Positions 9,387-34,340 of a DNA stretch of 64,000 nucleotides are shown one piece after another (position 1 is the stretch's first letter; each line of letters starts with the position of its first letter). The DNA is taken from positions 9,553,403 to 9,617,402 of the forward strand of contig CM082587.2 of the NCBI GenBank assembly GCA_040954595.2, in the 5' to 3' direction. The stretch comes from Balanoglossus misakiensis. Taxonomy: Eukaryota > Animalia > Hemichordata. A model generated the notes under the pieces. The model had not been told where the DNA came from, ran no database searches, and saw nothing but the letters and a program-made list of their open reading frames with translations. Made by a program: the position numbers and the translations under genes.

Positions 9387-9695
9387 CAGGGTTGACCTTT
9401 GGCCTTTCAAAAAAGTACTCTCCTCGAGCGCATCCCGCAAATCAGGGTCAGGCATAATTGAGGTCGTGATGATGAGACTCGGGTGTCGGTGCATCGACCA
9501 GAAGTAATATTTATATTGATTTATTGTGTTCTCCTCACGAGTCATATCGAGATGAATCAAGGAGTCGTGGTCCAAGCAATGATGAGACAGGTACAATGTA
9601 CACTACAGTTTTCAGTTTGCAACACCCACACGTTGGTTAAGCCAGTTTCTTCTATGACTGCATTCAATCGATGAAGTGGCCAAAAATGCTAATGG

Positions 9696-9905
9696 TGCAA
9701 GAACTGGGAAAATCAACGTGTCGTAATTTACTCAGACAATACACAGACAATTTCCTTTATTAACAAAGGCACATGTCACAATGCACTTGCAATGGAGTGG
9801 CTACGCGAGTTATTTTGGTTATCAGCCACCCATAATTTTCACATTACCGCCCGTCATATTAGGGGTGTTGACAATGTATTTGCTGATGCTCTCTCTCGCT
9901 TATGT
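9696..9905 (+). pseudogene. RNase H C-terminal fragment of a DIRS/Ngaro-type tyrosine-recombinase retrotransposon
   Basis: Manual translation gives WENQRVVIYSDNTQTISFINKGTCHNALAMEWLRELFWLSATHNFHITARHIRGVDNVFADALSRL, with the DN...INKG...HI.G..N..AD.LSR signature of DIRS-type RNase H. No RT upstream, so 5'-truncated. Confidence 0.85.
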
Positions 9906-10409
9906 GAACCAAAACAGTGGCAGCGTATTCAAACACTTACTATGTTGTCACGTTAAAGGCACATAAGCTGCAACTTTTGGGATAATTATCATAATTTTTG
10001 TTTCAAACTGTACTACCATTAGTCTATGCAGATGAAGGCAGAGAACTAAACACAAGCATTATAAACCCTAAATATGAATGCATATGCAAGTTCTAAGCAG
10101 ATAAATAATAAAGCTTTGCCGCAAGCGATTATGGCCGCCACCGTGGGAAAATGCAAAAAACAACAAAAATGTTGCATTTCCGGTTATGAAACTTTATAAA
10201 CAAAACATGATCTCATCCACTTGAGCTCATGAAAGTAAATGTACACCGCTGAGACATTATATTTTCCTTTTTCTTTCCAATATTGCACTTTTTTAAGAAT
10301 TGCAGAAATTTTCGTTTTTCTTCAATTTTTGGCTATTTTGTCATAAATAAGTGTTGAGCTTGATATATTATCATGAAATATCATTTAATAGACATGATTA
10401 AAAGCATAT

Positions 10410-11593: not shown

Positions 11594-12611
11594 ACCAGTG
11601 TTTTACTGCAACACGGTGTCTGTTTGTTGTGTTTATTTACTACCTTCAGCTTAGCTTCGAAAGGAGAATTATAAACATAACAAATGAAATATATTTATAT
11701 ATAATTGTGTCTTCATATTATCAATATCATGGTTATACTGTGGAGCAAATAATTATTTTAATGAAGAAGGGACAACGTTTGATTGACTGAATGAAGTTTA
11801 AAGTATATATGGCATTTCCTAATGGTTATAGCATTAATAATTAGTGCATCTTTGTATAGAGGCATATTGGCCTTTGGCATCAGGGTAGTGAGGTTTTAGA
11901 ATTACTTCATTTATAGAAGCACGTTTTACCTTGATCTCAAATAATGGAAGCATGTAATACGAGATGAGTATCAATTTAAATACATTCGTTTGGTTTTCAG
12001 GTGAATTAATCAGCATGTCAATGATATTTGAGAGTTAATGCCAGTTGTCTAATATGCAAAATGTATAATGGTGTATGTTATGAGGTTTGCTAGAGCAAAT
12101 GTTCAGCCGAGCTTCTGTTCTATATAAAGCAGGCCATTAATGTCCTTTGCAGGAAAATCTTATCAATTTGATGACATTGGTTCAACATTAATGAAATACA
12201 TAATTACTTCATACTAAATTGTACTGATCTAAAAATGAAAATTGGCTGAAATTTTATATTTATTTTATTTTATATATCATTACTTTTTTGGTATTTTTAC
12301 ATGGGTGTGTGGCAATAGTAAAGTGCACATAACAAACATGGTTTGTTTTGTGAGGTGAACTGTGTGTGAAGTTTTCTCATTTACAGGATGATGTGTAAGA
12401 ATTCTAATACTTTTACACACTATGTAGAGATGTATTTATTGCGTGTGATTTATGAATTTATTTAACATTCTTAAGAATGTACGATCAGTCAAATTGTCAT
12501 TTCTTTTAATTGTGGATTTCTGGTTTCTACTTTGTAAGCATAATAAACATCTGTCATAAATTACAAGGTAGTGAATTTATTTGACACATGTACTGGTAAC
12601 TGACATGAGTT

Positions 12612-13348
12612 TGCATGAAATACCTATTTAAGAACCTTGGTAATTTCTGAGGGATAAATTACGATGATTGTTAATTTGTAATGAGAAAATATCATCGCAT
12701 CGACTGAAAATAACTCTTTGTCAGCTAGAACCTTGAGTTGTTTTGACTTTATAGGGTGTAAAACGTAAGAACCACGAGTTTTCGGTAAGAAACACGGCTA
12801 TGCATGAAACTGCCTATTTTCATGCACAGCCGTGGTTCTTACCGAAAAATCGTGGTTCTTACGTTTTACACCCTACACAGTCAAAACAAGTCAGTGTTCT
12901 AGCTGACAAAGTCTTATTTTAGTCGATGCGATGATAATTTCTCATTAAAAATTAACAATTACCGCTCTATAGCTCTCTCATATCAGCAAGGTTCTTAGAT
13001 AGGCAGTTTCATGCATTGCCGTGGTTCTTACCGAAAAATCGTGGTTCTTACCGAAAAATCGGGGTTCTTACGTTATACAGCCTACAAAGTCAAACATTTT
13101 CAAGGTTCTAGCTTACAAAGTCTTAATTTTAGTCGATGCGATGATAATTTCTCATTAAAAATTATCAATTACCGCTCTATAGCTCTCTCATATCATCAAG
13201 GTTCTTAGATAGGCAGTTTCATGCATAGCCGTGGTTCTTACCGAAAAATCGTGGTTCTCACGTTATACAGTCTACAAAGTCAAAAGTTTTCAAGGTTCTA
13301 GCTCACGAAGTCTTAATTTTAGTCGATGGGATGATAATTTCTCATTAA
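12612..13348. repeat. ~200-bp repeat family: one inverted copy (palindrome centred ~12813) plus tandem copies; left part of an interrupted array
   Basis: 12612-12809 is the approximate reverse complement of 12818-13015. Further direct copies run to 13348, where the unit breaks at CTCATTAA and resumes at 31574. Confidence 0.9.
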
Positions 13349-13549
13349 CAGTTCGTGTTCAGTCTAAAATAAGACATCGTTTCTTCGCGGAAAGCGATGC
13401 GCAATAGGACATATTAATATTAATTAGCTAATGCGGAAGTATTGTACACAGAGTTATGTTCGGCTGTTTTCGGTCATTATTTAATCCCCATAAGCCGTTC
13501 ATTCGACTATTTTCGGATGTAACATCATCTAGAGAGGTCAGTGGACACA

Positions 13550-16500
13550 ATGGCGGAGTTTCAACGAGGTAAGTTCAAAACTTTGCCAGCTACGATCGAT
13601 CGAATTTTTGGTTGTTGTGGTCGCTGATGTCAACATATTTTGCTGCCTGACCAACAAGTAATACCTCTTTTTCTTGGTGCTTCTTTTGTATACTTGTACT
13701 CGTTCAATCGGCGTTTTTTTAGGTCCCATTGGTATAGGCATATATACCATGGGACCTTATGGGATCGGTTGCGTCTGTATGTATGTATGGATGTATGGAT
13801 GGATGGATGGATGGATGGATGTCTGTATGTCCGTCCACATCAAAAACTTGAAAACCGCTGCGCGTATCACCTCAATATTTGGTGTGTAGGTGCAGGCTGG
13901 GCTGTAGATGGGAGTTTGTCCAAACAAAGTTGCCAGGCCCAACAAATATGCAAATTAGCTGGAAAAATGTGAAATTTATCAAAACTCTGAAAGTCAACAA
14001 CTACTCGTCAGATTGCTTTAAAAATTGGTATGCATGTACCATATGTCAACCTCACATCGACCTGTAAGTGTTAAGTTAATATCATCGATGTTTTATTTTT
14101 TTATGAATTTTTTAGTCTTTTTATTAAATTTATACCTTTACTTATACCTCTATGGTTAAGCTATGTCCACATCTTATTGTGGAATTCTGGTCTGTGCAAT
14201 AGTCCTGTACAGTGACTGTCTATTGGTCAGTGAGCACAATGGGGCCAAAATAAAAGGCAAAATTTTGGGCTCACCTGTAACACCTGCTTAACACATTAAT
14301 TATGTGCATATCTAATTCCGGGCTAACTAATAGGGCTAGAGGTTTCGTTCTTGTGGGACATGGACCAGTATAGGGTCAAAATTTCTTGCCCAAATTTTGG
14401 GTGACCTCAGGTGACCTTTGACCTACTTTCCTATATCTCGGCATCCAGAGCAGGTACAGACTTGGCGTTTGGAGGGTTGGGACTAAAATTGAAAAGCCAA
14501 AATTGGGGGTCACCTGTGACACCTGCATATCTCATTAATTATGTGCATACCTAATTCCAGGCTAACCAATAGGGCTATAGGTTTGGTTTTTGTTGAACAT
14601 GGACCAGTATAGGGTCAAAATTTCTTGCCCAAATTTTGCATGACCTCAGGTGACCTTTGACCTACTTTATCATATCTTGACATCCAGAGCAGGTACAGAC
14701 TTGGCGTTTGGAGGGTTGGGACTAAAATTGAAAAGCCAAAATTGGGGGTCACCTGTGACACCTGCATATCTCATTAATTATGTGCATACCTAATTCCAGG
14801 CTAACCAATAGGGCTATAGGTTTGGTTTTTGTTGAACATGGACCAGTATAGGGTTAAAATTCCTTGCCCAAATTTTGCATAACCTCAGGTGACCTTTGAC
14901 CTACTTTTCCATATCTTGGCATCCAGAGCAGATATGCTTATTACTATGTTGCTATGTGCTATGTTGGCTTGGGCCCGATATTGCTGATTGCAGATCTGCT
15001 TGCAATGTCACCTGTAATTTTTATTCTGGTGTGTCACTGTTTCCGCATAATCCTCAAATGGGACCACAGTGTCCTTGACGCTATTTTTTCAATTTTCTGA
15101 CGAACAAGAAAGTAATCTTTCCATCGATGTATGACACGTGGTAACTGGTCATTGGGGAAAAATGGGGAAAACTTTTTAAAATTCCTTAGTCGTGTTGATC
15201 GTGACATGCATGTCAGTAATGAACCTCGTATGTGTAGTTCTAGTCAATTGTACATGTATATATCCTGTATTACGGCATTTGTTCTCTGCTTTGGCAAAGG
15301 CCTGTCATGAATGAATGAATACAGTAGTGACGACGTGCATGGCCATTGCAAATACACAATTTGTGACACTATTTTATGTAAATTGGAAATAAATTTCAGT
15401 CCTTTTCCAACAGCTGTTATCAAGTGTTGATGTTGTAACCACTGCATTTCATTTCTCAACAGAATCAGATATCCCTAAAGCTTCAGCCGCAGACATAAGC
15501 ATGATAAGGATTGAAAGTTCTGTTAGAGGGTAGGTAGTCTCATTGTTTTAAACAGTAACACTTATCAATCAATCACATGAATCAATGACTTGTGAATTAT
15601 CAAGTGGTTCCCATTTACTCAACAACCTCCAGTGTACTTGACTGAACTGATGTGTGCATTTTTTTCACAGCTATCATGTTTTCAGGGTAAAACCTCACCC
15701 AGATGTATGGTTGAGGGTGACACCTGAAGAGGGCAACCTATATGATGAAACAGCCATGGGGGTTTGGTACCCTGGTTTAGCTGACATACCTCCTGAGAAA
15801 CACAACATTATAGCTAGAGAGGCAAACAAACGAGGGCCTCAACAAATGGTGAAAGAAAATGCATCCAAACAGGTTGGCAGAGTGCCAGCGAACCTGTGTG
15901 GGAAGTTCAAAGAGTTACTGGAAAACAGGATGGTCACAAAGATTGAATGGTAAGATTTTCATTGTACTTTACAGTTAGCAAATAGAGCAGAAAGCATGCA
16001 TAATAGGTAAGGTAATTTCACAAAATGTATTTTTTCCATTTATTTTCTTTGTGCATTTCTTAATGACTAGTTTTTTGACTAACATATTATCTGTTGCAAG
16101 TGTATAGTGTCACAGTTTTCATGACAAGTAATTACTTCACTTGAACATCACTTGTAATGTAAATTGTAAAATACTTTCCCTAGGTACTCGGACGTGTTTC
16201 TATGAATTTGTTTTCTTTTCTTTTCTCTTTCAGTCAGTTCACTGGGGATGCTGGTCCAAGTAAAACCCCAGCACAACACCAACGCTTTAAGAAGAGCCGT
16301 GTGAATAGAGACCAGCCAGGGGGAGGAGCCATCCTGTCATGTATATATCACGTGCATACCAAAGCTGGCTGTGTAGAAGAAACCAAAGAGGCACTTGACA
16401 AAACCTTAAGACATATGGCAGGTATGGCCAAACGACTGCCATAGTTTCTTTGATTACTCAGATTGTTTCAGTTCACAGTTTCTGTGTCTAGTTTTAGTAC

Positions 16501-19500
16501 TTATTCTGTTGTGTTAGATACAAGTTTTAGTATTTATAGTTTTGTTTTCTACAGTTTTAGCATTTAAAATAACTGTGTTTTTTTGCATCCTAAATTTTAG
16601 ATTTTTACTGATGCTGTTCTGTTTCAACAATTCTGGTCATGGGTCTCAATTTCAGTCATCACAAAATGCATGCAACGACACCATGTCAAGCATTTGATAG
16701 TCTTGTCAATGTCCACATTTTACATCCTGTTTTTTTTTTCTTAAATTTTGTAGTTTTACAAATATTTACTAAATTTACAAGTCTGCCATTGTCCTGAAAA
16801 ATCACTAGAGTTAATATACACATGAAGTGTGTTGTTGTCAATTTGAAGAAAAATTGAAAAATGTCAAGAAAAGAAAAGTGCTGAACAACTTTACTCCAGA
16901 TAAATGTTTTATACGATGTTTTATACATATATGTTATATATTTTGTTGTTATAATTAAAAGTTAATATATTTATGATTACATTTATAATTGTTGGCTATG
17001 ATTTATTTGCATGCTTACAGATCTTGATGATGAAGTTACTTGCCATATCAGTGTGTTGTTGACTGTGTGCAGGATATGTGCAACACAAATAACAGACTTC
17101 ACCAGAGCCCGTCATGTATCTGACTTCACACCTGTGATTGATAATACATGGGGTATTGATGTCAGAAGTGACAAAGAAGAAATCCATCCGATGTATGTGT
17201 GTAATACATGTAGAAGAACCCTTGAGTACCATAAAACATGTATGGAAAAAAATAAGAAGTATAAAACTGACAAAGTCATGAAAAGTTTCTACCCTCATGA
17301 TGACACCTGTGTGCTTTGTTTCCCTGTGGACAAAGCTGACCATACATATGCTGAGACAAGCAGTGAGTTATGCAAATATGACAAATGCAGCATTAAATTA
17401 GTAAGTACAGGAACTCAAACCATCCCATCAGTAACAATACCAACAGAGACAGGTGATGTCACTCACCTTGACACAGAAATGAAGCAGAAAATCACAAAAA
17501 ATATCTTTCATCTTGAAGCCAAGGAAATAGCCCAGGACTTTAACTCCTTCGACCAAACGTACAAAGACCTATCAAACTGTGTAAACTTCAATCCTGATAT
17601 GTACTACAGGCAAAGGAATCCCATGGTCAGAAGTGTCATAGAAGGACTTGAAATGGGTTCAAATGTAGCTGCTACTATTGGAGTCAAAATGATGGCTGTA
17701 GAACAGTTATATCAGATTGTTTGCTCATGGCGGATTGCTCCATTCGCATTCCTAGTTTCACTACTTCTATATGCGGTGACTGGCAGTGCTTTGGTAATAT
17801 CTGTCATTAGTAGGCTAACTCCAAGTGGCAGTTGGACAACATTTAGGAGATGGCTCAATTCACTGACCAGTGAACCTATACAACTACCTGCTGCAGGGGA
17901 TCTCTCCATTGCCTTTGACAATGACCAGATTGTGCAGAAACAGTATGAGGTCAAAGCAGGTGGAAAACCAAGGGTTTCTATCCTCACTAGCATCTGTTAT
18001 TCAATACTGGGACATGAGGGACTTCAATTCAAACCAAACTTGGCTCCAAGGTAAGGCTTGTCATTTAGTGACGCAAGTCTGTGTAACTTTTGCATCGACA
18101 CCTCAACAAATGCTATTTGTGTATCACCATAAGTAGATTTGTATCATCTTGATGTCATACAAGGAACACACTCTATATCATGGTAAACACAGCAAGATTA
18201 TATAGAATGAAGTGGTCAAGAAGCACCAACTCTTGGACACAATGTTCTTCAATGCAAACTAATTTTATTTCTGACGTTTCGTGGGATTAATCCCACTTCA
18301 TCAGGGTAAAAATTGCCGATTATATGTATGTGTCAACATTATATGTATGTGTAAATTTTTAAGTGTCACGTTCAAAAGCATAGTCCACTGCAGCTGTAAA
18401 AATACATGCATGATCTTTCTTTAGAAACTGGATGAAATATTCGGAATCAGGAAACCAAGTGGAAGTGAAGACGATGCTCACTGCCAAGATATTAGATCAG
18501 ACAAAAATATCCAAGGGCTTCCAGATTGTTCGAGGAGAAGTAAGTATGCTGTAATATATATTTTAAAAAGAAAATATATTATATTTTTAGTTAGTGGTAC
18601 AATTGTATTTTCTGAGGACAAGTGAGATTTCAACAATACAATTACATTTTTTTTATTTGTGTTGCATGTAACAATAGGAACATGTCAAATTGACTTTGTC
18701 AGCTACTTCATTGATTCTAATGTGATGTTTTCTCAGTTGAAACGAATGACCCAGAAAGCTCTGGAAGATGTAGTACTGCAGCAGTTCAATGAGGGTGGCA
18801 GTTTCTTGGATGACATAGACCAACGTGTAGATGAGATAGAAAAAAAACAAAGAGAGAAAGCTATGTCCAGTGTGTGATACAGCCATGAAGAAAACAGCCA
18901 GGAAATGTCCTAATGAAAGTTGCAGGGCCAACTTCAAGGAAGCTACAGAAAAGTTGACAGGTGCCGACCACTGTTTTATTATTATTTTATTTTTTGATGA
19001 AATACTTGGCATAGAGAGACAATTGTAAGAAATATGACATCTAACCTAAATGTAAAATACATGTAGTATTGTCTCACAGGTACACCAAGATATAATTTAC
19101 GAATCATAAAGACATTAGATAAAAAGAAAATCTCCAGAGATGTTGCTAAAGCATTAATGATAACTGATTCCTAATCTTTTTTAATGCAGGCAAGGAGTCT
19201 CTTGGAACTATGCTTATCCGAACACCAAAGGAAAATTCCAAAATGAAAGCATTCATTGTAAGCATCTCTAAAACTGGGGAAGAAGCAAATGTTGAAACTG
19301 CAACTGATGATGTAGCTGCCAACTACAGCCACCTACAGTCAGGTCATCCTGGACACCCAGTACAGGTATTCTGTGGAGAACCTGTCTTCGTCAATCCCAA
19401 CTCTTACAAGACAGTTACAGCAGTCCTCCTGAAGATAGGGGAAGCAGGCAATGTTGCAAGAACTGGATTAAACAACTCTAATGTCGGTGATGGAAAACGA

Positions 19501-22024
19501 TGCTGGTTGAAAGTGACGATGGATGGTCTACCCTACATGATTGCGCGTAAGGTGGTTACAGAGTCTTTTCACTGTGACCTTTGTTCGGAAACTATTAGTG
19601 GAATGGCTGCATATGAAAGACATGTTCATACTAATCACCAGTACTGTCCCCTTCCAAAACCACAGCTTGAGTTTGGTTGGGTTGTACTCAGTCCAGGCAA
19701 ATTGCATATGGAAATGAATATGGTGAGAAATTTCCTTGCTGTTAACTGGGAGGTCTTCATGTCTGACTTAGCCCATGAAATGGGCTTTATATCAGAGAAA
19801 GCACAACAATATGCAAAGAGTGGAGGAGATCACCATATTGCTTGGCAGCTACTGAATGTGGCTGTCCAAGGCAACATTCGGGAATTATTGGTGCCCTATG
19901 TTCGTGATCGTTTGTTAAAGGAGCAGTCGGTGTCTGTGAACGATTTCATCCACTATGCTTCTGAAGCTAAAGATGCAAACTACACGTATATGTTTGAGCA
20001 AACCTACAGGTATGCAGGTGCCATTTTGGTATACAGGATGGGAGTTAGACTGAACAGGGCAGACCTCATATCTGGAGCATCTCTAGTGTTTTCTCCGCTT
20101 TGGAGCAGAAGCAAAGATTCAAAGTATCAACTCTTGGACCTATACAACAGGTACGTAACACTAAATTTATATTAAACTCTTTTAAGACTGTATTGTCCTA
20201 CCCGCACTCTTAGATCTATTGATCAACGTCATCTTACTCCAGTATTGGCAAATACCAAACCATCGGTCAGTGTATGTACTTTTTCGTACACGGCTCCTAA
20301 ACACTGGAATTTTCTACCCCTAGAATTTGGACTTTGCAAATCTATTGACACATTTAAAAGGCAGTTCAAGACTCATCTTTTTATGTAACTTGTTTTAAAA
20401 GAGATGTCACATCTTAATCCCCAGGGCGGACAGAGCAATGATGCCCAATGAACTACTGTCATTTTTGGAGACAAGTGAAAGTGTTTCTGTAACAGGAAGT
20501 TTATATCATGGAGAGGATATGGATGCTCGCCTTGAAGAAATCAACAAAGCCTCTAAACGGTGGTCTGCTGGGGCCATGTTTGTCAATGAATGGACACGAA
20601 CATTCAGGAATTTGGATAACCTGACAGAGGTAATGTACAATATTTTTCTGGTAAACTAGTACTTCTATGAAAACCTATAAATCTGAGTTAGTGCCCCTTG
20701 TAACTTTGTGGAGAGGTCATTCACCTCTGTTCAACTGCAACTTCAAGGAAGGCGACCTCCATTGTCTTTTTACACTTGATGAGAAAAAGGGGAAAAAACG
20801 AAACCCCTGACTTTAAAGCTCCAACACATGTGCTGAACCCAGGCTACACAGCTCTAAACTCCACATTCACAGACTTACATGGTCTTCAGCAGTGAGAAGT
20901 GAGTATCAGGGTCAGTAAGTTGAGCAGTAAGGGAGTGTCACTAATACTTCCTTTTATTCATCAAGTGTGCACAGATGATCAAGGTCGACTTCTTTGAAGT
21001 TGCTGTTGACCAGAGGTGTATCTCTACAAAGAGCTATGGTAAAATATCTCTTCTCTTTCAAATCTTACAGCTTAGAAAGAAAATGGAATCCACTTTGAAC
21101 ATAGCAGAAAGGTCTAGCTCAAGTAATCCATCAAGATTGAGGAAAGAGGGAGAAGTTACTGCTTGGCGTGTTAAACTCCGTAAAGAAAAGTAAGTTATTT
21201 TATTCATTGAAAAAACCTTCCTAAACCACACCTGAATGATAGTTTGTAAGGCTGATTCTTTGAAGTTTAAGTTGACTAGTATCAAGTATTTTCAGCAATC
21301 AAATCAACTTTTTATATTTTTGCCCACTTGAGCACTTTTGACAAGGAATATAGATCAACTGAATGATTTCAACACTTCTAATCTGTTTCTGTTTGTAGAA
21401 CTGTGTTCTTGAGGTGTGTGCCTCTGTAATCAATTAATTTTACTTCAATGAAATGTCATAGATTTCTCAAAAAATGTATTAGAGCCAAATCTTGATGCAG
21501 GAAATGAATGTTTCAGAGCAAGATTTCTGTAACCAATATATAATCAGTGGCATCTTTCATAACATTGTGTGTAACCATTTCTTTCCAGGTATCTCACGAC
21601 TCCATCAGAGGAAAGAGCCCATGTTGGTCTGGATGGTAAAGAACTGGATGCTGGCCTGAAAAATATCACAGCCATTTCTGAAGTTAATCAGAGAATAGTG
21701 CTAGACAAAGTTGTCTTGGGTGGGGCTTCAAAAGGCAGTGTTCGTCATGAGTTGACTCCTGTGTATGTTACCGTCGAGGAAAGGAACAAGCGTGAAGCTC
21801 TAGAAAATCAAACAAAGGCACAACTAATAAAACTTGTTCAGGCAGCTCTCGAGAAAGTCAGCGACAGTGACTTACAGTTCGAATTTTCCGAGACATTCAA
21901 AAGTGTAAGAAAGGCCAAAAAGGAGAAAGTCATTGAATTTTATAGGGAGCTTGAGGAAGTGAGTGTTTTACAAGCTGCAGAGGAGTTGGCAAAAGATGAC
22001 CTTGAGCCTGAAAATATTGAATAA
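13550..22024 (+). CDS. Spliced ~1035-aa DDE transposase with RAG1/Chapa-type N-terminal Zn domain (one +1 frameshift in an A8 run)
   Basis: Phase-compatible GT-AG exons: 13550-13568 (inferred first exon), 17021-18050, 18425-18539, 18737-18960, 19190-20150, 20425-20629, 21071-21189, 21589-22024. Total is 3108 nt after removing one A at 18840-18847. Motifs: HISVLLTVCRIC...DKEEIHPMYVCNTC...HDDTCVLC; AFDND; CPVC...CPNESC; MDGLPY...CDLC; PGKLHMEMN; DARLEEINK. Confidence 0.85.
13776..13835 (+). repeat. (GTAT)n/(GGAT)n microsatellite
   Basis: gtatgtatgtatggatgtatggatggatggatggatggatggatgtctgtatgtccgtcc. Confidence 0.9.
14255..14930. repeat. ~239-bp tandem repeat (~2.8 copies) inside the HINE-like element
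   Basis: GGGGTCACCTGTGACACCTGCATATCTCATTAATTATGTGC recurs at ~14506 and ~14745, with a diverged copy at ~14267. Confidence 0.85.
15463..16444 (+). CDS. Spliced HIRAN-like domain protein
   Basis: Exons 15463 (or ATG 15501)-15529, 15671-15949 and 16234-16444 join in phase. Product: MIRIESSVRG|YHVFRVKP...PEEGNLYDETAMGVW...VGRVPANL...IEC|QFTG...GGGAILSCIY, matching the VRGYH / EP.N.YD..A..V / VG.VP pattern of HIRAN folds. Confidence 0.75.
18262..18312 (-). ncRNA. Minimal type I hammerhead ribozyme (Penelope-like element remnant)
   Basis: Minus strand reads CC-CUGAUGA-A-GUGGGA-UUAA-UCCCAC-GAAA-CGUC-A: both core boxes, perfect stem II, and the palindromic ACGU in place of stem III. Confidence 0.7.
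20205..20385 (+). mobile_element. 3' end fragment of an L2/CR1-group LINE in a transposase intron
   Basis: Translates to ...FSYTAPKHWNFLP...KSIDTFKRQFKTHLF, the typical ORF2 C-terminal motif. Confidence 0.65.
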
Positions 22025-22049
22025 ACAAACCATCTATCTATCTACCTTA

Positions 22050-22735
22050 CATCAGCTTCAGATGTGATAGTGAGATATGCTATTGTATCATCAGCAAATA
22101 GTCTTACTGTGGAATTTAAACCTGTTTGAATATCATTGGTGTAGTATAAGAACAAAGATGGGCCCAATACAGAGCCTTGTGGGACTCCCGATTCATACAG
22201 TGTCTGATGATATACCGTCTATCGCTACTACTTGGGTACGTTGATGGAGGAAGGATTGTATCCAATTAAGGGTTTTACCCCTTATACCATAGTGATGTAG
22301 CTTGTGAACCAACAAATTGTGACAAACTCTATCAAAGGCTTTGGAAAAGTCCATGACTAGGACATCTGTTTGTTTACCATTTTCCATGTTTTGGGTCAAA
22401 TCGTCTATGAGCTCTAGTAGCTGAGTCTCACAGGATCTACGCTGTCTAAATCCATGTTGTAGTGGATAGAAAATATTATGCGTTTCTGCATGATTCATGA
22501 TGTGTTTTGTCACAATGTGTTCCATAAGTTTTCAACAAATACATGTAAGTGATATGGGTCTGTAGTTTTCTGCTTTATACTTCTGACCTTTCTTGAATAT
22601 AGGTGTCACAGTAGCTTTGCGCCAGTCTTGTGGAACTTCACCACTGTCATAGGACATACCGAATATAGTAGTTAGTATTGGTGTTAATTCAACTGCTAGT
22701 TGTTTCAGCACATATGGTTTGATATTATCAGGACT
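22050..22735 (-). pseudogene. Non-LTR retrotransposon (CR1/L2-group) reverse transcriptase fragment
   Basis: VPQDWRKATVTPIFKKG...NYRPISLTCIC, QHGFRQRRSCETQL, DFSKAFDRV, then SGVPQGSVLGP and LFADDT. Contains stops and a small deletion; truncated at both ends. Confidence 0.92.
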
Positions 22736-23295
22736 ATATGTAGTATTTGTAAACACAGATAATATATTTATTTGAACAAATAAATAACAAATATAAATTT
22801 AAAACTCTGTTATAAAGTGTGTCTAATATAAATATAATTTTTTTACACGGTACGAACATTTTGTTGTTGTTGTAAATATCACAATATTTCTGTCTCAAAT
22901 AGAAAAATATTGCTCGACCCTGAGTCCTTAGTAACACAAACCTACCCCCTGGTCATGATATGATGACAAGGCAATGAATCTATGAAGTATTAAATAAAGA
23001 ACACAAAAGGTTCCAGAGTCTACCAGTAAAATGGATCAGGAGGAGTCATTACACATGGAATGAGGCCAAAAGTAACATTTTTGCAGGGAATAATAGGAAA
23101 AAACAACAGAATTTGGTTCAAAAAAGTACTGAAAAAAGGACATTTCTCTGCTATAGTAACCAACAAACTAAGAACAAACTAAATGTTTCTATCGCCACTT
23201 AACAGACAACCTAAGCAAATTTTCTACTTTAACAAAATATTAAAAACTATAACAAACGTATCTTGAATCATGCAGAGTCTATGCTTAAACCCATA

Positions 23296-24583
23296 CTAAT
23301 GGTCCCGCGTGACATTGTGTTCAAACATCTGAACATGAGGCCCATGAACATCTGAAGACGTGACGTTCTTATTTGGTGTTGGTTCCAATGGTGTCACCAA
23401 ATTTGCTGTATCAGATGCACAAGGTACAATCTCCACATTTCCATTTGCCACTGACAGCTTTCCCCTCTGAAAATCCTCAAGGGCTTCATGACTACCATAC
23501 ACACGGGTTTTATCTTTACTTCGAATATACAGAAGAATTTCTTCTCCTGTACAGACATGGTAGTCATTCACCTAAAAGCAAATAAAATTGATAACATTAT
23601 TATAGGCTTATGATAATGAATACAACACAAAATTAAAATTTGGACAAATAATTTTCAAAAAATATCATATGAATGACAACAAAATTTCATTGTGAAAGAT
23701 CAGTTTTACTATAACAACAAAAGATACAACATAAAACTTTCTACAATATAAAACCTCATAGATTTGTTTATTTTTCTATCAGTAAGCAGGACAATTTATT
23801 ATTTAGTATCTGCCATATCATTTGTTGTTTGAAAAGTATAACAACGTATTGTACAAATGTAGCTGTCCCACAAGAATAAACTTACCTTCTTAAGGAATCC
23901 CTTCCTTTGCTTGCTGCCAAAACTACTCCGTCTATGTTTATCGGCCAGATATTCAATTTTTATCTTCTTCTTTCCATACTTCACTTTTCTGGAAACTTCT
24001 TTGTGCGCTTTCTTGTTTGGCGTTAGAAATTGGTCTGCAGACTGAAATGACAAAACTAATGTTGAAAGGCAAAGAAACTGCAAGCTCTATTTGAAGGTCG
24101 AATAGGCTGGTCTATTAAGTTCCAGAACGGAGACAAGCTTATTTGACGGTTACGTTCATAGGGTACGCTACCAATCACACTCCTATCTGGCTGGTGAGAC
24201 AAACACACAACCAACTTTAACTTTAGCACAAGCGAAGGAACAACGAACTATACGCTGAAATGTGCCTCAAAGTGACGAAATCGGTTGTCTGGTTATATAT
24301 AATGCGAATGACTTTTAACACGAGTTAGAATGCTATCGAAAATATACGGAAATGGTTCGATTGCTTTGTCTGTTCAATGGTCAACACAAGTACGCGTCAA
24401 GTGACAAGTACGCGCCAAGTGACATGCCAATGCCATTGCATGTCGCGTACTTACTTAAAAACTATACGTTTTTGCTAATGCTAATTTTTGCTAAAACATT
24501 AGTTTTTGCTAATGTTCAACACGTAAACTAAATTCAGGAGGTCGAACTGATATAGAAATGATACTCACAGTTGATGGATCCAT
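23296..24583 (-). CDS. Spliced ~148-aa SRF-type MADS-box-like protein, convergent with the transposase
   Basis: Phase-0 exons 24583-24569 (MDPST, inferred), 24041-23886 and 23571-23296. They give GKKKIKIEYLADKHRRSSFGSKQRKGFLKK|VNDYHVCTGEEILLYIRSKDKTRVYGS, colinear with the SRF MADS box (GRVKIKMEFIDNKLRRYTTFSKRKTGIMKKAYELSTLTGTQVLLLVAS). Confidence 0.75.
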
Positions 24584-25154
24584 TCCGACGGACCGAGACA
24601 CAGAAATCTGGAAACAATCGATACGAGGAACTCCCTTCGACCGCGACCTTCTACCATGTCTACATGCAATCGACACGAGGAACTCCCTTTGACCTTCTAC
24701 ATGACCTGACCCAATTCCATGTTCCGGTTCCTGTCGCACTTGCGCAGTACCATTTCATTGCATTGCGAATGCGCAGAAACGATGTCTTATTTTAGACTGA
24801 ACACGAACTGATTAAGGTGGCATTGCATGAAAACTAGTGATTTTTGCCAAATTTTACTTTTTTACATAAATCGGTAGGTCTAGTACTGACCCACATTCTG
24901 ACAAATGCGTCTTGGTGGAAATGGTACATAATCACCCAAAAATAGCACTTTTTTGAATGAGTCCGCAGCTGCACGCGTTCTTGTTTACCTACAGACGTAA
25001 TTTACGTTAAACGGTTTCACACCGAAGTCATGATTGACATGGATTATGCAAAATAGTTGCTAAAAGGCAGAGGTCAAATAAAGATCATTAACAATACATA
25101 TAGGTCTCAGCTGCATATCTTCATTACAAACATTACAAAGATCACAGTGCAAAG

Positions 25155-28100
25155 ATGGACATCCAAGTGCGTTCCCGTCGCAGAAAACGTAGGCGAGGAT
25201 TAAAAAAACAGAATTTCAAAAGATGGATCGCGAGCGACCTTGAACGTGTCCAAGCGCTAGCCAGCAAGCAAACTGGTTCTGACACAGAGTCCGACGCATT
25301 GGATATGGATGGCAGTTACGATTCGGACGACCACTTCGAAGGAGGGGATTTGCCTTCGCAGCCGGGTACGAGCGCTTCTTTTCAAAAAGTGGCACTGGAT
25401 GGATTTGCTGCGGCAGACACCACTGAAGACCAACTTGAAGAAACTTTACGTATAATAGATTTATCTATGCTGAACCACGTACTTGAGAAAGTTGCCCTGT
25501 GTAAACTTTGTACAAAAGGGACAGTCAAGATCGTTGAGACGTACTTTATTGCAGGGCTGGGAAGTAATTTCCGAGCGTCCTGTAACAATCCCGCCTGCCC
25601 AAGATCTATCGCTTCAATTGATCGAGAATTCTATTCATCCAAGAAGACGGGCAAAGTTTTCGATATCAACAGGAAAAAGTCCTTGCTATGCGTGCCGTCG
25701 GAAGTGGACGAAGGGGGTGCGTGAAATTATCAGCGTACCTGGGACTTCCGGCCCCTGTCTGGCACCACCCGTATCAGAAGCACGTCGCTGGCATGGCGGA
25801 TACCACTGAGCAGAAAATTGACCAAGAATTGGTGAAAGCTGCCCAAGAATTGAGAGAGCTCAAATTTGAAATTGGGGAGATTTCTTCGGTCGATGAAACC
25901 GCGAATGTAGCAGTTTCGGTCGACGGGTCTTGGAACACAAGAGGCTTTTCATCGATGTACGGCTTTGTTAGCTGCATTTCAATGGATACAGGTAAATTTC
26001 AAATTCTGTCATAAAATTTACTTGTAATCATTGTTATCTTTTCATCAGTGTTTATATATGTATATATTCAACGATATCACTCAGAAAACACGCCGATTAT
26101 CAATTTGGCTCCGCGTCTATAGCAGTGATCAACCACAAGGTAAATACATGTGAGCCAGCGATTGCAGGAAAGGACTAAAATAATGTAATGTGTATGCTGT
26201 CATAACTACCAGGAAATATTTTGTGTGTGTTTCAGGAGAATATTATCTTCAAAAGCACTGACTACATGTACATGTATATTGTTACAGGCTTCAAAGCTGT
26301 TTTTTGTTCGCCTGTATTAATGCAAAAGCCGAGCGTACAAAACCTATGCCGAGCTATTGTCCAATGTGTGAAAAAGGTCGTTAGGCTGGTCGTTGACATC
26401 ACCCAGCTGCTAACTTATCACCAGAGCAAATTCTGATGATTTTTGAACTACGAATTTAGGAAAGATTCGTCTTCCCCTTTCTTTATAAAGACAGTCACTG
26501 GCAATGAATGTGGAATGTGCAAAAGATTTATCAAATCTAGGAAGAGCCCAACTTCACGCATTTATAATTGTGGTTGTCGGTCTGAGACACCTTGAAGAAA
26601 ATCACGCAACGTCTTGCAAGATTGTCACAAAAGTCGAGTCAGTATTGATAAAGCGGCTTCTCTGACCTCAAGCTGATTTGCGATGACATGTTTTACTGTC
26701 ATTCTCTTTCAGGCAAGGTCTTGGACAGGCATATTTTGTCTGCAAGGTGCAGCCAATGTCAAAAATGGGAGCAGAAACCAAAGGACCATGTGTACATGGA
26801 ATGGTTTATCGAGCATGAACCCAATTGCGAGATAAACCATGACGGATCTGCCAAAAGCATGGAAGACGCTGGGGTTCGGATACTGTTCGAAAGGTCAATA
26901 GAAAAGCACAACTTTCGGTAAGAAAATATACATTATTACTTGTAAAAGTATCGACGATTTTTCATGATAAACTCTACCCTTATATTTGGCTCTGCAACTT
27001 TGGTAACAATCCATTTCTTTCGAAGACGGTTTACAGTTTCAGCAAGACAACTCTTCGGTGTTATTACAAATTTCACTTGTTATTGTCATTGTTTTTTTTT
27101 ACATAAATGTACAAAGTGAAAAGATAATCACATCTTTCCCCTTTATTTGTATACACAGGTACACCAAGTACATTGGAGATGGGGATAGTTCAGCGTACAC
27201 AAGTGTGAGAGACGTTTATGAAGGTGACGGCATAATTGTCGAGAAAGAAGATTGTGTCGGCCACATACAGAAGAGAATGGGAACGCATTTAAGAAAACTT
27301 GTGGATAAGAGTAAAGGTAAAAAAAACTACACAGATTTTAAAATTTATAAATGACTGCATGGACTCTTCATATGTTAGTACAACGTCATTCAATACTTCA
27401 TTAGTCCTGTTACGAGTACATCTATAGGATGGCCATTAAATTGATCGAAAATGTGTTTCTTTTTTCTAACAGGTGGAAAACTTGAAGATGGTAAAGGGTT
27501 GACAGGCCGAAACCGGTTGACAAACCAAATGATTAATGCCTTCCAGGTTTTCTATGGGATTGCCATTCGGAACAACAAAGGTAAGGCGAAACTTAAAATA
27601 AATATTTGACATGTGCTGACATGACAAAGTGGTAGACAACACAGAAAAATACGTGCATTTTTCTATGTCTTCTTGAAAATCTCTTCAGTATATGCCTAGG
27701 CTGAAAAATTGAAACAAGAAATGTGTCATCCAACTATCGTGGTCTCAGGATCATTTATTGACATTACATAACTTCAATTTTGATTCAGGTAACATAGTCG
27801 AGATGGGCAGGCAGACTCGGGCAATTCTGGAGCATTATTCAAGTACAAGTGAGTTGCCCCGTCATGACAACTGCGCCAAGGTTGCCAAAAGCTGGTGCAA
27901 ATGGCAGCAGGATCGAGTAACTGGAACGACTACGTATAGACCACTGAAACATCCACTCGCTCCAGCCATCGTCAATGCCGTTCAACCAATCATCAACAAA
28001 TTGTCAGATGAGACTCTTCTGAAGGGAGCAGAAAACTGCTATACGCAGAATCAGAATGAAAGTCTGCATAGCACGATGTGGAACTGGCTTCCCAAAGAAC

Positions 28101-28477
28101 AGTACCATGGTTGGAGCGAGATTCGGCTGGGAGTCAACATGGCAGTCGCTCACTTCAATTCGGGAATGGCCAGTTTCAACACCGACTTGTATTTGTCCTG
28201 TAAGTTCAATGTGAGTATGTCCTCTAGAAAATCGTGGTTAGGCCTAGACCACGGAAGAGTTTACCATGCAGAATACAAGTCCGACGCGTCTGTTAAACTA
28301 CAAAGAAAACGGCTAAAGAGAAGGCGTCTGCAGAAGTTGGATAAATTCCAGTACGCGGAGGGCGAGAATTACCAAGCCAGTGCATTCGACAAGGCCACGG
28401 TTACATCTGGACCCAGGCGCTGCAAATCATGTTTACAGCCCATGAGAGGACACCCACGAGGACAGTGTAGAGAGTGA
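25155..28477 (+). pseudogene. Spliced DDE transposase (Kolobok / 'Mutator-like' GDGDS family) with a frameshift near 25675
   Basis: Exons 25155-25991, 26713-26917, 27159-27316, 27473-27580 and 27789-28477. Motifs VSVDGSWNTRGFSSMYG, NHDGSAKSME, YIGDGDSS, EDCVGHIQKR, TQNQNES, and a C-terminal CxxC..H..C knuckle. FDINRK continues into VLAMRAVG only after a 1-nt shift. Confidence 0.88.
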
Positions 28478-28791
28478 CACTGACAAACCGAGAAATCAGC
28501 AACATTTGTGTAATGCATCAATGTAGATTGTATTACCAAGTATATACTGGGAATTTTAATGTATGGATGCTGATTGTGATCATTTGTTTATGTTTGACGG
28601 GATTCATAGATGATGTTCTGTGCTGATAAATCAGAGACAGCAGAATATTTGTATTGTGATGTTCAAATATTTATTAAAATCCACTTACAGTGCAGTGCAG
28701 TAAATGCAGTAAAATGTCAGTACATGTAATAGAAAAAAAAAATTTAGGGTTTATTTCATATCAATGGAAATAATGTAAATTCGGGTATCTT

Positions 28792-29742
28792 CTAAAGCTT
28801 GGCAGAAATGGCGTCAACAAACTCTTCCATGGTAACGTCGTAGGCACCCTGCAATTAAGAAAATACAAATGAATTCAGACCTATTACCTCAATGTATAAC
28901 CGTCATTTACTGTTTTCTATTCAAATCAGTCATTGTATAGGAAAAATATATGTGGTGTCTTTTTGTCATTGTTATGTGAAACCGGTTAACACCACCCATT
29001 TATTTGTTGATTTATTTTGCAATCTTCTTTTATTTCATAAAGGTACTTTGCTATAAACTGAAGCTGAATTTACTTTGTAGAGGTTTCAAACTACTGTTCT
29101 TGTACAAAACCCTTGACAATTAAATTAGATAGGAAATTCAAAATAGAGTGTACCTTTATTAACACATCTTTCTTGTCCACATCTTACAGTGTAATAAATT
29201 TCCTTCGTTTGAGATTCATGACAGTTGACACCCGAATATAGTTTTCACATACCTGCAACAGTTCCCCTTTTATATTCCTTGGCAATAGCTTGCGTAAATA
29301 GACCAGCACCACTGGAGGATAGCTATATTGCGCACCAACGGGTCCAACTTCTTTGGCCTACAATAAGTACAAGGAAAATAAGTGAATGAAAACCACAGAC
29401 TGCAACCGAATGGCTTCGTACGTATGCACACACAAAACACCACGTATAGCGCCGCTACATACCACTTTACGACACATACACTTTTACACGTCCCTACACT
29501 TCCCGAATGTCGTAAATGTCGCGAAAATATACACGTATTTTGCGATGTTTCTCTCCCCTGTACCGGATCCGGTCAAATACGATCGATCGTGTTTAGCGAT
29601 TTTCATGGGATACTTACGTAGAGAGCGTGGGCCCAGTGGCAGTATAATATCCATCGAATCCGTTTCTGCCCTATGCCCCTTTTCCTTCTCTCCGCGACCA
29701 TTTTTTTCAATAGCGTCACAGAACATGTCGCCGAGATTTGAT
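28792..29742 (-). CDS. KolX-like accessory protein (3' exons; 5' exon(s) probably near 30105-30190)
   Basis: In-phase exons 29742-29618, 29357-29253 and 28848-28792 give ...KRIRWILYCHWAHALY|AKEVGPVGAQYSYPPVVLVYLRKLLPRNIKGELLQ|GAYDVTMEEFVDAISAKL*. This resembles the R...Y...W and P..V...IR...P motifs of KolX, and the gene is tail-to-tail with the transposase. Not in the ORF track. Confidence 0.6.
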
Positions 29743-31573
29743 CTGAAAAAGATTATGCATAGCTTGAATCATTGACTCTGCAGTGCACACTTGGCCTTGG
29801 CTTTTACCTATGTGATTTCACACAGAAATTTCTATATAATTCTATTTTAACGTTTCGCCGACCACTGTCGTAATGCTTTTTGCATTTGTTGCCATTGCAT
29901 CAAATGGCCATTTCAGTGTCGTGTGAGACAAAAGTAGCATCACGCCTGTTTTGACGTGAAGTGTTTCTACAGTCGTAGAAAGGCACAGGTAAACAGGATA
30001 ACACGTGTAATAAACCATGCTGACTGGTTTTGCGTGTAAGTAGGGTACACAATTCATTAATACGTATATTACTGTGTAAATGAGCGAGGGAAATGTATAC
30101 TTACCGGCAATTCTGGAAGGCTCGAACTACAGCAGTTCTTGCACGGAAAATCGGATCCATAACAAAACGTGTTATTTGCAAGATGCTCGGTGTAAGAAAT
30201 AAACAGACTACGGCAAAATTGAGGTAAAAGCGACGCTTTCCTTTCTAGATAAACAACATGACGTCATCATTGAAGCCGATGTCTTGTTACCCTTCGCAGA
30301 AAGAAGCCACCCATCACAAAAGTTGTTTATTGTATGTGTGAAACGGGAAACGATGCGCGTGCATCTGTCCAGTTGGCACGCTTTTCTTCAGACAACTGTA
30401 ATATAAATGTCCGAGTTTTGGTTTTTTTTTGGCGGGTGCTACACCCCATATAATTGTTGAAAACGTGTTGAAGTAGTTTATGTCGCTGTTTCCTATTTTT
30501 CTATGGACTTTGTGACTGCAGTGCACTGCTCGTTTTCCGTTTTATTGGCCTGGAAAATCACTGCGTTGCTACTGCACTGCACTAGCTATAAGCGGTCTTC
30601 GATTTGTTGTGGAGATAGAACCCGTTTCATCCAAATAGCACTACTCTGTTGTCTCGAATACTGTTATCGCTTTCAAAACAATGATTATTTATTCTTTCCT
30701 TGCCGATAAACAGTTTGTTTGATAAGAGTGTCCAAGCTTCGGACTAATCTCTTGCCGTTGCCTTGTAAACACAATCCCGATGTAATGACCCGCCCATGTT
30801 TGCAGAGGAAATAGATTATGTCACATAGCGGGAGTGCCTGGGCGCGTTTACCTCAGAATCGGCGAAGTTTTTCAGCTTAATTTCCGTCGTTAGATTGGAT
30901 TTCATGTCCGATGCACATTCAAGTTATTTAATTACCCCTTGTCGATATATTTGTGGGGTTTTGTTTTTTTTGACGTCGATACTTTCGAGGCAGGAGGAGA
31001 AATAAGTGTCAACAATGCAAATTGCCGTTTTTCTCGGTTTGCATTTTCGCTGCTTTTGGCAACTTCGGACTAAAATAGCTTCGCCCTGCGTAGGCCGAAT
31101 TTGCTCAAATTTTGAGAGGGAATTGTGTATGACCCATCCAACAAAATGGTAGTTTTGTTTGTCGATAGAGTGTCCCTGGCGGGAATAAACTCTGATTCAA
31201 TACAACTCACCGTGAATTTGATCAAATTTTCTGAAAATCTAACTTTCAAACACTGTTACTCCTCAATGGAAGCAGATAACGCAAAACAAAATTACCGTTG
31301 TTTGCACGTGTACTCTAGTTTCGAATGACATATTAAGATGCATAATGCATGGTCAACTTTTTTACCTATTTTAAATTTCATGACATAATATCAAAAATGT
31401 TTTTTTTTTCACCCAAAATCGCCACCATTTCCGGGGATCAATAATATTTGCAACTCAAACAAAAGTTCAAAATCTCAGCTTCCAGAATATATATGGTTTA
31501 TGGGGGTTTTAACTTTGTCTTTGATGAGAAATAGGCCTCTGAAAAAGTCTCGACGGTTTCATGCAATGCCACC

Positions 31574-31975
31574 TTAAAAACTAACAATCACCGCTCTATA
31601 GCTCTCTCATATCATCAAGGTTCTTAGATAGACATTTTCATGCATAGCCGTGGTTCTTAGCCAAAAATCGTGGTTCTTACCGAAAGATCGTGGTTCTTAC
31701 GTTTTACACCAAAGTCAAAACAAGTCAGTGTTTTAGCTGACAAAGTCTTATTTTTAGTCGATGCGATGATAATTTCTCATTAAAAATTTATAATTATCGT
31801 AATTTATCTCTCTGAAATCACCAAGGTTCTTAAATTGGCATTTTCATGCATAGCCGTGGTTCTTACCGAAAAATCGTGGTTCTTACGTTTTACACCCTAC
31901 AAAGTCAAAACAAGTCAGTGTTCTAGCTGACAAAGTCTTATTGTTAGTCGATGCGATGATAATTTCTCATTAAAC
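31574..31975. repeat. Right part of the interrupted ~200-bp repeat array
   Basis: TTAAAAACTAACAATCACCGCTCTATAGCTCTCTCATATC continues exactly where the unit broke at 13348, followed by about two more copies. Confidence 0.9.
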
Positions 31976-32370
31976 ATTTCAGTAAAATGCAATTTCAGTA
32001 AAATGGGTTGATGTTTTTAAGTGGACAACGTGTTTGTTTTACTTTATAAGTAAATAAATTTAACATGAAAAAAATTGACCACCACAAATTTGTTTAGGCA
32101 CACCAATAAAAAACAAGCAAAACAAAGAATATTCTAAAATGTAGCTTCAACCAAGTTTCATTGAAATTAACTTGTTAAAAAATCAATTTGTGACAAGCAA
32201 TGATATATATGATTATAAAATGAAATAGTAATTCTTAACGTTTGTCAGTTGGAACTTGTAACTTATACATGTAGTATAAAGCAACTAAACACATATCCCC
32301 AGTACTCAATTCTGGATGCCATATTATGTATCCAATGCAAAGAAGGAAATCAAACTATGCAGGCACCATG

Positions 32371-34340
32371 TCATACTCTACCAAAATGTCTAGTGGTAAA
32401 TGCATAATCATACAACCCGTGCATCCTGTCTACTGACAATAGGTCATGCTCAAGAGTGGGTCTCGGTAGCTTTAATAAATTGATGCAAGTATCTGACGTT
32501 GGAATAAAAGATATTTCATATGGAATAAATTCAATACTTGGCGCAGTTCCAAACCCTAACACTGGTTCTTGCTCTGTTCCCGTTGTAAAGACAAGTAGTC
32601 CTGTTTCATAATGACCTACATTACACGTCCTATACACATGTATTGCATGTTCTGATTGGTTTATCCGATTCTCTAAGGTCCACTTGCGGCACGCTGATTG
32701 GAGGGACCTTGTAGGTTAGGTCTTATTACTATGTATTATTCACTAGACCTTGTAGGTTAGGTCTTATTACTATGCATTATTCACTAGACCTTGTAGGTTA
32801 GGTCTTATTACTATGCATTATTCACTTTACAGCTCCCCGATTGGTTAATGTGTAGGCCTGGTCCTCCAGTGTTCACTGCCTCATTATACAGGACCTTATA
32901 GGTTAGGTCTTATTAATATGTATTTATTCACCATACAGCTCCCTGATTGGTTAATGTGTCAGTCTGGTCCCCCATGTGTTCACTGCCTCATTGTGAAATG
33001 TCCAAAGTGCTTCCTGGCTACCGTTGTGGTAACACATTATTCGGGATGTCCGCAGATCGTTCATTGCTTTTCTAAGAAATAGCCTGACTGATATTATCTC
33101 CAACATAAACCGCACCCTGGAAAGATTAAATGATCTTTTAGGTGGACTTTGAAAATCTGATTAACTCATCTAAGCATTTTAGCTAACAGTTGTATATTTT
33201 TTTAATCACCCTCCTACTTCTCATCATCAATTTTATTATTGTTGTTATTACTATTTTAAAGTAAATTTGTTTTGACGAAGATGTTGTGATAAGGAGTACG
33301 TTGTCCGTTTATACATTCGTATATTGTTTTCGTAAAATGGAACTGTGACGGTGCAGCTTCGTGAAAGAAGTACAATAAAAGTAATCATACCTGTAAAGCA
33401 ACTAATGAGGTATCCCAAAGAAATGCAATGCTATTTTAAACATTTCTATTTTTGGTTTGCTCGAATGAATAGCACACACTTCGTATTCAGCCAGGTGTTA
33501 CACGAAGTGATGCGCTGAAAGGCATTACGTAACAAAACACTAGCCCATTTCAACAAACCGCCACTGGAAATAAAAAAAAATTCTCCTGGCAATTTTTATT
33601 TCGAGTATCTAGTTCACAGTATCACAAAAAAATACCATGAATAGTGTGAAGGAAAAGGTGAAATCCAATCATTATAGGCCTATAAGTGCCTTTCTTTATA
33701 CACTGGGATCGAGCTTCGACCACGCGCAGGCAGCATGCCAGACAGAATACGACAACTGTATTCAGAAAGTACAAAAGACTTTGCATAACGAGGCAGTGAA
33801 AACTGGAGACCTACACATTAACCAATCAGGGAGCTAATAGTTGAATAAATACATATTAATAAGACCTAACCTACAAGGTCCTGCATAATGAGGCAGTGAA
33901 CACTGGAGGACCAGACCTACACATTAACCAATCAGGGAGCTGTAAAGTGAATAATACATAATAATGAGACCTAACACGTAAGGTCCCTCCAATCAGCGTG
34001 CCGCAAGTGGACCGAAGATTACCAGATGGACCAATCACACTTGTCGGTACATATGTCATGGACCTGACTTATGAAACAGGACTAGTACATCTTCTAGTGT
34101 GACTGATCCTCTTCTATTACCTTTTAGACAAATAGAAAGTCAGGTAGAAAAGTAAGCACGGCTGCCATGAGAAAAATATGCATTGATGTCATGAATCATG
34201 CTGTTTGACGAAACATTGCTATAAACCATGAAAGTTATATTTTAACCCATTGATATAGCCAATACATTACTTACTTGCAACTTCACGAAGATATTTGTTG
34301 AATACTGCATATACTTGGCCTTCGTATGTTCTATTCTTCG
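32371..34340 (-). pseudogene. G2E3-like HECT ubiquitin-ligase C-terminal remnant, interrupted by a foldback element
   Basis: Exon ending 34275 (..VYAVFNKYLREVA) splices to 34120 (SNRRGSVTLEDV), then continues after the insertion as LVFTTGTEQEPVLGF...PTSDTCINLLKLP...FGRV*. PTSDTC corresponds to the HECT catalytic-Cys motif. No 5' part recognisable. Confidence 0.8.
32597..34083. mobile_element. 1.49-kb non-autonomous foldback/MITE with long modular inverted arms
   Basis: Termini AGTCCTGTTTCATAA / TTATGAAACAGGACT. Internal inverted blocks (32678-32995 versus ~33785-34012) with 41-bp subrepeats. Probable 3-bp AGT duplication at 32594-32596 and 34084-34086. Confidence 0.82.

Follow-up and report, generated by a model that had tools for sequence, protein, structure and literature searches.

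We find that an 11.5-kb transposon that has terminal inverted repeats (TIRs), at positions 13349-24810 of a 64,000-nucleotide stretch of Balanoglossus misakiensis DNA (hereafter the window), carries a MADS-box gene. Judged by its sequence, the gene is a divergent member of an SRF-type MADS family, and it is very probably an old, transposon-borne partner gene. Animal MADS-box genes are regarded as a small conserved set consisting of SRF and MEF2; a third, fast-evolving family, borne by transposons in cnidarians and deuterostomes, would change these gene counts and would be a case of a mobile element recruiting the fold of a transcription factor. A full-text literature search found, in the portion of the literature it covered, no published account of an animal DNA transposon that carries a MADS gene. 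The same portion describes a two- or three-gene plan for DDE transposons and leaves the MADS kind of partner undescribed.

The borders of the element were defined by a left target-site duplication (TSD) ATTAA at 13344-13348, a left TIR on the plus strand at 13349-13384 (36 bp perfect, 39/40, starting 5'-CAGTTCG), a right TIR on the minus strand at 24775-24810 and a right TSD ATTAA at 24811-24815. The inverted pair of 40 bp begins at 13349 and 24810, and its 36 terminal bases are identical (36/36), which together with the perfect TSD indicates that the insertion is recent. Excision in silico of the element and of a later, TTAA-targeting transposon rebuilds one unit of the host 210-bp array, and this reconstructed empty site makes the element borders and the 5-bp TSD secure. 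A 4-bp TTAA TSD was considered for the MADS-carrying element and rejected, since it is to the later insertion (24816) that this TTAA belongs.

That second transposon (24816-31573) sits in the right TSD, whose TTAA it used and duplicated; it contains pieces of a PF20700 'Mutator-like' transposase (E 2.3e-13), its TIRs begin GGTGGCATTGCATGAAAAC, and we take it to be a 'Kolobok'. The stretch 28500-31500 within it holds no long ORF. Both insertions were taken up by a host array of ~210-bp units in both orientations, found at 12600-13348 and 31574-31980, whose units contain GTCTTA..TTAGTC. An Rfam scan of 12000-37000 gave no match.

The MADS gene is predicted to consist of three minus-strand exons: exon 1 (24583-24569), which encodes MDPST and is the least certain; exon 2 (24041-23886), which encodes the basic N-terminal arm and the DNA-recognition helix; and exon 3 (23571-23296), which encodes the beta-hairpin half of the MADS domain, a family helix motif, a PLEPTP tail motif and the stop codon. 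Predicted splicing removes two GT-AG phase-0 introns (527 and 314 nt) and leaves an ORF of 447 nt (148 codons and a stop, no internal stops), in agreement with the phase-0 joining of minus-strand ORFs that the sequence-only reading had proposed from the letters. Pfam scans of exon 2 alone and exon 3 alone gave no match. Searched against the PDB at E ≤ 10, exon 2 had as its sole matches two SRF chains (E 0.5 and 0.65), both aligned without gaps; the colinearity with the SRF MADS domain claimed earlier thus holds, and FGSKQR and TFSKRK do stand opposite each other in this alignment. In an Atlas search, the three nearest neighbors listed for exon 3 were all MADS clusters (0.80-0.82, below the 0.9 line), and exon 2 gave no usable match. 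Word-index protein searches with exon 3 and with exon 2 returned no homologue, and it was solely by way of the transposase loci described below that we arrived at the family.

The joined window product scored 62.9 bits on a profile built from 36 relatives with the window protein excluded. The best of 2000 shuffled products reached 11.2 bits, and six other AG acceptors near 23571 yielded 12.5-17.0 bits; a chance joining of ORFs is excluded by these values. With this family score, and with the gene lying inside the TIR element, the earlier identification of a MADS-box gene within a transposon is borne out. The proposed tail-to-tail layout is likewise correct, the MADS gene being convergent with a transposase whose stop lies at 22024.

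Scanning metagenomes for related transposases yielded 40 loci, two of which (L006 and L009) have an opposite-strand MADS gene downstream of the transposase. Over 122 aa, the L006 and window MADS proteins share 27% identity (E 9e-9; alignment score 104, best of 2000 shuffles 61). The L006 protein matches PF00319 at E 5e-4, and its gene starts with ATG-GAT-TC at a position similar to that of window exon 1. The L009 MADS protein matches PF00319 with 41.7 bits (cut-off 26), and its gene adjoins an intact transposase of 1055 aa; L009, whose transposase and MADS pair is intact and free of introns, lends itself to direct tests. The L006 and L009 transposases are about 32-46% identical to that of the window, and the same convergent MADS gene beside transposases so far apart argues for an old partner gene over a fresh capture. 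The suggestion that the gene is a captured copy of host SRF therefore lacks support as far as a one-off capture is concerned: the pairing is already present in these elements, and the proteins form a distinct family with C-terminal motifs of its own.

The pairing is not found at every locus, although most of the 40 are too short to judge. Ten loci extend 1 kb or more past the last transposase match, and 2/10 have a MADS gene. Five of the ten have a near-complete transposase C-terminus followed by 1 kb or more of sequence, and two of these have the gene; the other five, where 1 kb or more follows an incomplete transposase, have none. The near-complete loci that lack it are L023 and L024 (both 27% identical to L009) and L010; the last is ~80% identical to L009 and has no MADS gene in 1.1 kb downstream, which suggests that the MADS partner may be dispensable. 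A TIR pair was sought in 13 related contigs, most of them too short, and none was found. Intronless, long open transposase frames occur in L009 (220-3387), L001, L004, L010, L023 and L024. In L025 and L026 (~95% identical to L009) the transposase is interrupted where the window gene has introns, and the uninterrupted frames may stem either from transcripts that were spliced or from copies that lack introns.

A full HMMER search with the L006 MADS protein as query gave a family set of 34 proteins at E ≤ 0.001. PF00319 (SRF-TF) was matched at E ≤ 0.05 by 24 of the 34, and the Pfam cut-off of 26 bits was passed by 15; most of the 10 without a match are fragments that begin inside the domain. Species names were attached to 3 of the 28 members looked up (Nematostella vectensis, Porites evermanni and Branchiostoma belcheri); P. 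evermanni has two family copies, one of them automatically labelled MADS-box domain-containing by UniRef. All three family cases with DNA context sit inside transposons. Searched against the PDB, the family profile matched MCM1/SRF at E 4-6e-12 (49 bits) and MEF2 at E 4e-7 or weaker (≤33 bits), and by these sequence scores the family is nearer to SRF/MCM1 than to MEF2. As the family tree includes no host SRF or MEF2 row, an SRF origin is argued from profile scores only.

The family and the SRF/MCM1 factors (PF00319; PDB 1HBX, 1K6O, 1MNM) have in common a colinear MADS domain, in which a basic arm and a recognition helix are accompanied by hydrophobic strands. The family differs in having its own downstream motifs (GS..L...Y..G.L and PLExTP), in being multi-copy and in the core word, the canonical TF[ST]KR being present in 0/34 proteins; a P[LM]xx[TA]P tail is common to the window protein and 22 of its 34 relatives. 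The recognition helix varies widely between members. It is basic throughout the family, with arginine in 24/24 relatives at one column and in 23/24 at another, which we take to be equivalent to SRF R164 and R157, respectively. The window protein, unlike SRF/MCM1, is without the invariant arginine: it has glutamine at the 24/24 column, with the flanking lysine and arginine retained, and glycine where 21/24 relatives have leucine, a conserved hydrophobic position three residues before the lost arginine. The lysines it retains presumably correspond to SRF K154 and K163. It is 23-32% identical to any relative and forms the longest terminal branch of the family tree (2.36), outside any supported group.

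These substitutions bear on the state of the window copy, and whether it is still functional we consider about evenly balanced. One explanation holds that the MADS partner functions in the lineage while the window copy is decaying and no longer binds DNA. The loss of both the invariant arginine and the hydrophobic residue before it would fit such decay, as would the long branch, the frameshifted transposase and the two nested insertions described below. We nonetheless think it unlikely, as the frame of 148 codons is open and its splice sites are intact, the lysines at the K154 and K163 positions remain, and the identical TIRs and perfect TSD mark a recent insertion. A recent insertion, taken together with such low identity of the protein to its relatives, points to old divergence and not to recent decay.

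The DDE transposase gene (17021-22024, plus strand) has a RAG1-type N-terminal zinc finger and seven predicted exons (17021-18050, 18425-18539, 18737-18960, 19190-20150, 20425-20629, 21071-21189 and 21589-22024). A single frameshift interrupts it within the A8 run at 18840-18847; this may be a genuine lesion or an error of sequencing. With an X placed at the break, the protein aligns over 561 aa with one from Ptychodera flava at 55% identity; against the Branchiostoma and L009 proteins, both full-length, identity is 32%. Its candidate catalytic triad lies in FDNDQ, MDGLP and EEINK; across the family the D, D and E columns are invariant within DNDQ, DGxP and ExxN (D149, D416 (29/29) and E663 in family-alignment numbering), and CxxC and H(4)H motifs are near-invariant. 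Searches of viral contigs with the transposase alignment and with the protein P0037 found no relative, and neither did a search of prokaryote genomes.

The N-terminus matches PF12560 (RAG1 zinc finger) at E 1.3e-5, and the transposase-family profile matches RAG1 residues 102-288 in the PDB at E 2e-10; the rest of the 1018-position profile gave no RAG1, RAG1L or Transib match among its 6 PDB hits at E ≤ 10, and a single-sequence PDB search matched RAG1 only in the N-terminal region. The structure of the L009 transposase core was modelled from a 38-row alignment (pLDDT 83.5, pTM 0.80). Foldseek returned no PDB match for this model at E ≤ 0.001, which alone excludes nothing; in a wide structural search the best 30 rows were integrases and transposases (Z 6.7-10.8). 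The model aligned with foamy-virus integrase at Z 10.8 (128 residues), with P-element transposase at Z 9.9 (349 residues, rmsd 6.0), with Hermes at Z 9.9 (270 residues, rmsd 7.6) and with RAG1 at Z 5.8 (367 residues, rmsd 6.9). On this predicted structure the family has an RNase H-type fold, and the element thus combines the features of DDE cut-and-paste transposons: an RNase H-like core in the model, invariant D/D/E residues, TIRs and a TSD.

The sequence-only reading had placed the MADS gene in the RAG2 position of a ProtoRAG-like element. As far as ProtoRAG/RAGL is described in the part of the source consulted (PMC7204232), the layout agrees in the 5-bp TSD, the convergent transposase and partner gene, the RAG1-type N-terminal finger and a DDE core with a large insertion domain. 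The identity fails in other respects: the same account gives an invariant 5'-CAC at the start of RAGL TIRs and a kelch-PHD partner (PMC7204232), whereas the element ends in CAG, has a MADS partner and includes HIRAN as a third gene. A Pfam scan of the element ORFs found no kelch domain. The core, unlike that of ProtoRAG/RAGL, is not recognisably RAG1/Transib in sequence, any RAG1 sequence match being limited to the finger region, and its model is nearer to P-element transposase and Hermes than to RAG1. We therefore rejected ProtoRAG identity. The explanation that follows from it, namely that the element is a ProtoRAG (RAGL) in which a host SRF gene, captured recently, took the place of RAG2L, could appeal to the TSD, the convergent two-gene layout, the finger matches and the 367 residues over which RAG1 aligns structurally, but against it stand the CAG termini, a core without match to RAG1, RAG1L or Transib chains at E ≤ 10, the empty Foldseek search and the membership of the MADS gene in an old and widespread family. 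We regard this reading as largely refuted and give it hardly any credence. The element bears on whether a convergent transposase and partner layout arose more than once.

Other groups were compared in the same way. The DUF6589 domain, which we take to be linked to Academ, matched the transposase core weakly, at E 4.5e-4 to 0.05, below the cut-off. As described in the portion of PMC10045372 consulted, AcademH has a 9-10-bp TSD and a helicase and AcademX a 3-4-bp TSD and a nuclease, and the 5-bp TSD of the element fits neither. Neither a helicase nor an XPG nuclease turned up among those ORFs of the element that were scanned, nor in the L009 and P0003 transposases, both of which are intact, and the N-terminal RAG1-type finger and the MADS and HIRAN partners further distinguish the element from Academ. 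The CMCT clade comprises EnSpm, Mirage, Chapaev and Transib, and in the parts of the descriptions consulted (PMC12730594; 10.64898/2026.01.24.700457) its ends and TSD fit those of the element. The CxxC and H(4)H motifs of the element differ from the CMCT arrangement in being adjacent, as one compact C2H2-like unit directly after the second D, and Pfam gave no CMC transposase match. Chapaev is, in the part of the source consulted, the only other lineage that consistently keeps a RAG1-type finger (10.64898/2026.01.24.700457), and a MADS partner is absent from its descriptions as far as consulted (PMC12730594; 10.64898/2026.01.24.700457). The transposase family here is a further carrier of this finger, and the element thus bears on the origin of the RAG1 N-terminus.

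We file the element as an unassigned DDE lineage between Academ-like and CMCT-like groups. Its marks are a 5-bp TSD, CAG ends, a RAG1-type N-terminal finger, a non-RAG core and MADS and HIRAN partners. In the portion of the literature covered, the lineage fits no published group; Repbase, the AcademH paper and subscription journals may list it.

The HIRAN-like gene (13550-16444, plus strand) has four predicted exons (13550-13568, 15463-15529, 15671-15949 and 16234-16444) and an open product of 191 aa. Its match to Pfam HIRAN is below the cut-off (E 0.024), and a PDB search with the window HIRAN exon gave no relevant match; a homologue in L006 scored 68, against 52 for the best of 2000 shuffles. 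The L006 gene (7632-8350) lies beyond the MADS gene, head to head with it, and L006 thus holds the three genes of the window (transposase, MADS and HIRAN) in a different order. Within 16414-17021, a donor at 16421 in the last HIRAN exon would splice in frame to transposase exon 1 (17021). Two products are conceivable: HIRAN fused to the transposase, with 612 open codons before the frameshift is reached, or a transposase whose short leader, ATG-GCA-G, provides a Met-Ala-Asp start such as that of L009.

Two later insertions, with approximate borders, interrupt the element. The first (13720-15020, in HIRAN intron 1) has short inverted repeats together with a TGGA/TGTA microsatellite, and a 239-bp unit occurs in it as 2.8 tandem copies; it is presumably of the 'Helentron-associated' type. 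The second (22030-22800, minus strand) is a broken LINE reverse-transcriptase fragment between the convergent genes (RVT_1 E 1.2e-12 for 22196-22531).

MADS domains dimerise, bind a 10-bp dyad with an A/T core and bend DNA. The earlier reading had reported no CArG box at the termini, which is right for the canonical form, CC(A/T)6GG being absent there, and incomplete otherwise: each TIR contains CTAAAATAAG, a C(A/T)8G box, inside a perfect 14-bp dyad GTCT-AAAATA-AGAC at TIR positions 14-27 (13362-13375 on the left, 24784-24797 on the right). A C(A/T)8G box alone occurs in 1.8% of 11988 window 36-mers and in 2.5% of shuffled TIRs; for a dyad with 4-bp arms like the one seen here, the rate is about 0.12-0.13% (0.13% of the 11988 window 36-mers). 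Having been noticed post hoc and in one element, the dyad serves as a lead. The L009 contig end (start CCAGTCAG), which may be a terminus, is without such an A/T box.

In the mechanism we propose, the predicted MADS protein would form a homodimer, and this dimer would bind the GTCT-(A/T)6-AGAC dyad in each terminal repeat, would bend the DNA there and, once bound, would help the transposase to pair and cut the element ends. Expression, dimer formation, DNA binding, the bound site and a role in transposition are all steps that we infer. An end-binding, DNA-bending accessory of the transposase appears on sequence grounds the likeliest role, one we favor tentatively and a little short of an even chance; an accessory role as such is plausible. 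Precedent for a separate DNA-binding partner gene is provided by PIF/Harbinger (Nuwa), where, in the part of the source consulted, a transposase is likewise accompanied by a separate small DNA-binding protein gene (PMC12730594); there the partner is Myb/SANT, the TSD is 3 bp and the transposase is unrelated.

The same TIR position admits a second role. Both outer genes begin within about 230 bp of a TIR, which makes the TIR dyad promoter-proximal as well, and for this reason promoter regulation is inseparable from end-binding by sequence. The MADS protein might accordingly be the element's transcription regulator, acting near the transposase, HIRAN and MADS promoters to time the element's expression, with no direct part in cutting, a reading in favor of which all solved relatives are transcription factors, the L006 MADS and HIRAN genes diverge from a shared short upstream region, and the low-complexity tail conserved in relatives of the window protein could be an activation or repression region. 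A comparison of five upstream regions found no CC-N6-GG box, and beyond the TIR their shared 9-mers were A/T-rich chance words only; we consider this reading possible but somewhat unlikely.

Action on the host, by heterodimerisation with SRF or by competition for CArG boxes, shifting host expression to the benefit of the element, would be compatible with the closeness to SRF/MCM1 over MEF2 and with the hydrophobic dimerisation-strand pattern kept in the family. The low identity to SRF argues against it, and the wide variation of the recognition helix would be more in keeping with a protein that co-evolves with the DNA of each element than with one tied to a conserved partner in the host. We consider such action very unlikely.

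Returning to the accessory role, the ends of the element also resemble its target. The host 210-bp units hold in GTCTTA..TTAGTC nearly the TIR dyad, a 12-bp TIR word (GTCTTATTTTAG) recurs in the host repeat, and a one-base variant of this word lies in the host repeat ~20-35 bp before the insertion point. At least 12 bp in common with the host repeat was seen for 10/5000 shuffled TIRs and 14/4859 window 36-mers. That a MADS dimer would read both the TIR dyad and similar target words and so steer insertion, in a lineage that may have donated the RAG1 N-terminal finger, is left by the recurring word as a bold reading, and we hold it to be improbable.

Several features lie elsewhere in the window. 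A 90-bp tandem array (955-6489, ~59 copies) has long open frames on both strands, and the Pfam matches there, without a passing stretch, look like repeat artefacts. A tyrosine-recombinase-like ORF (10398-11462, Phage_integrase E 0.006) follows RT/RNase H-like fragments at 9286-11462, the whole being by appearance what we take to be a DIRS-type retroelement remnant. An isolated C-terminal fragment of a HECT domain lies on the minus strand at 32371-32715 (E 1.9e-6), and 36142-64000 is occupied by a 130-bp satellite of more than 210 copies, mostly 96-99% identical.
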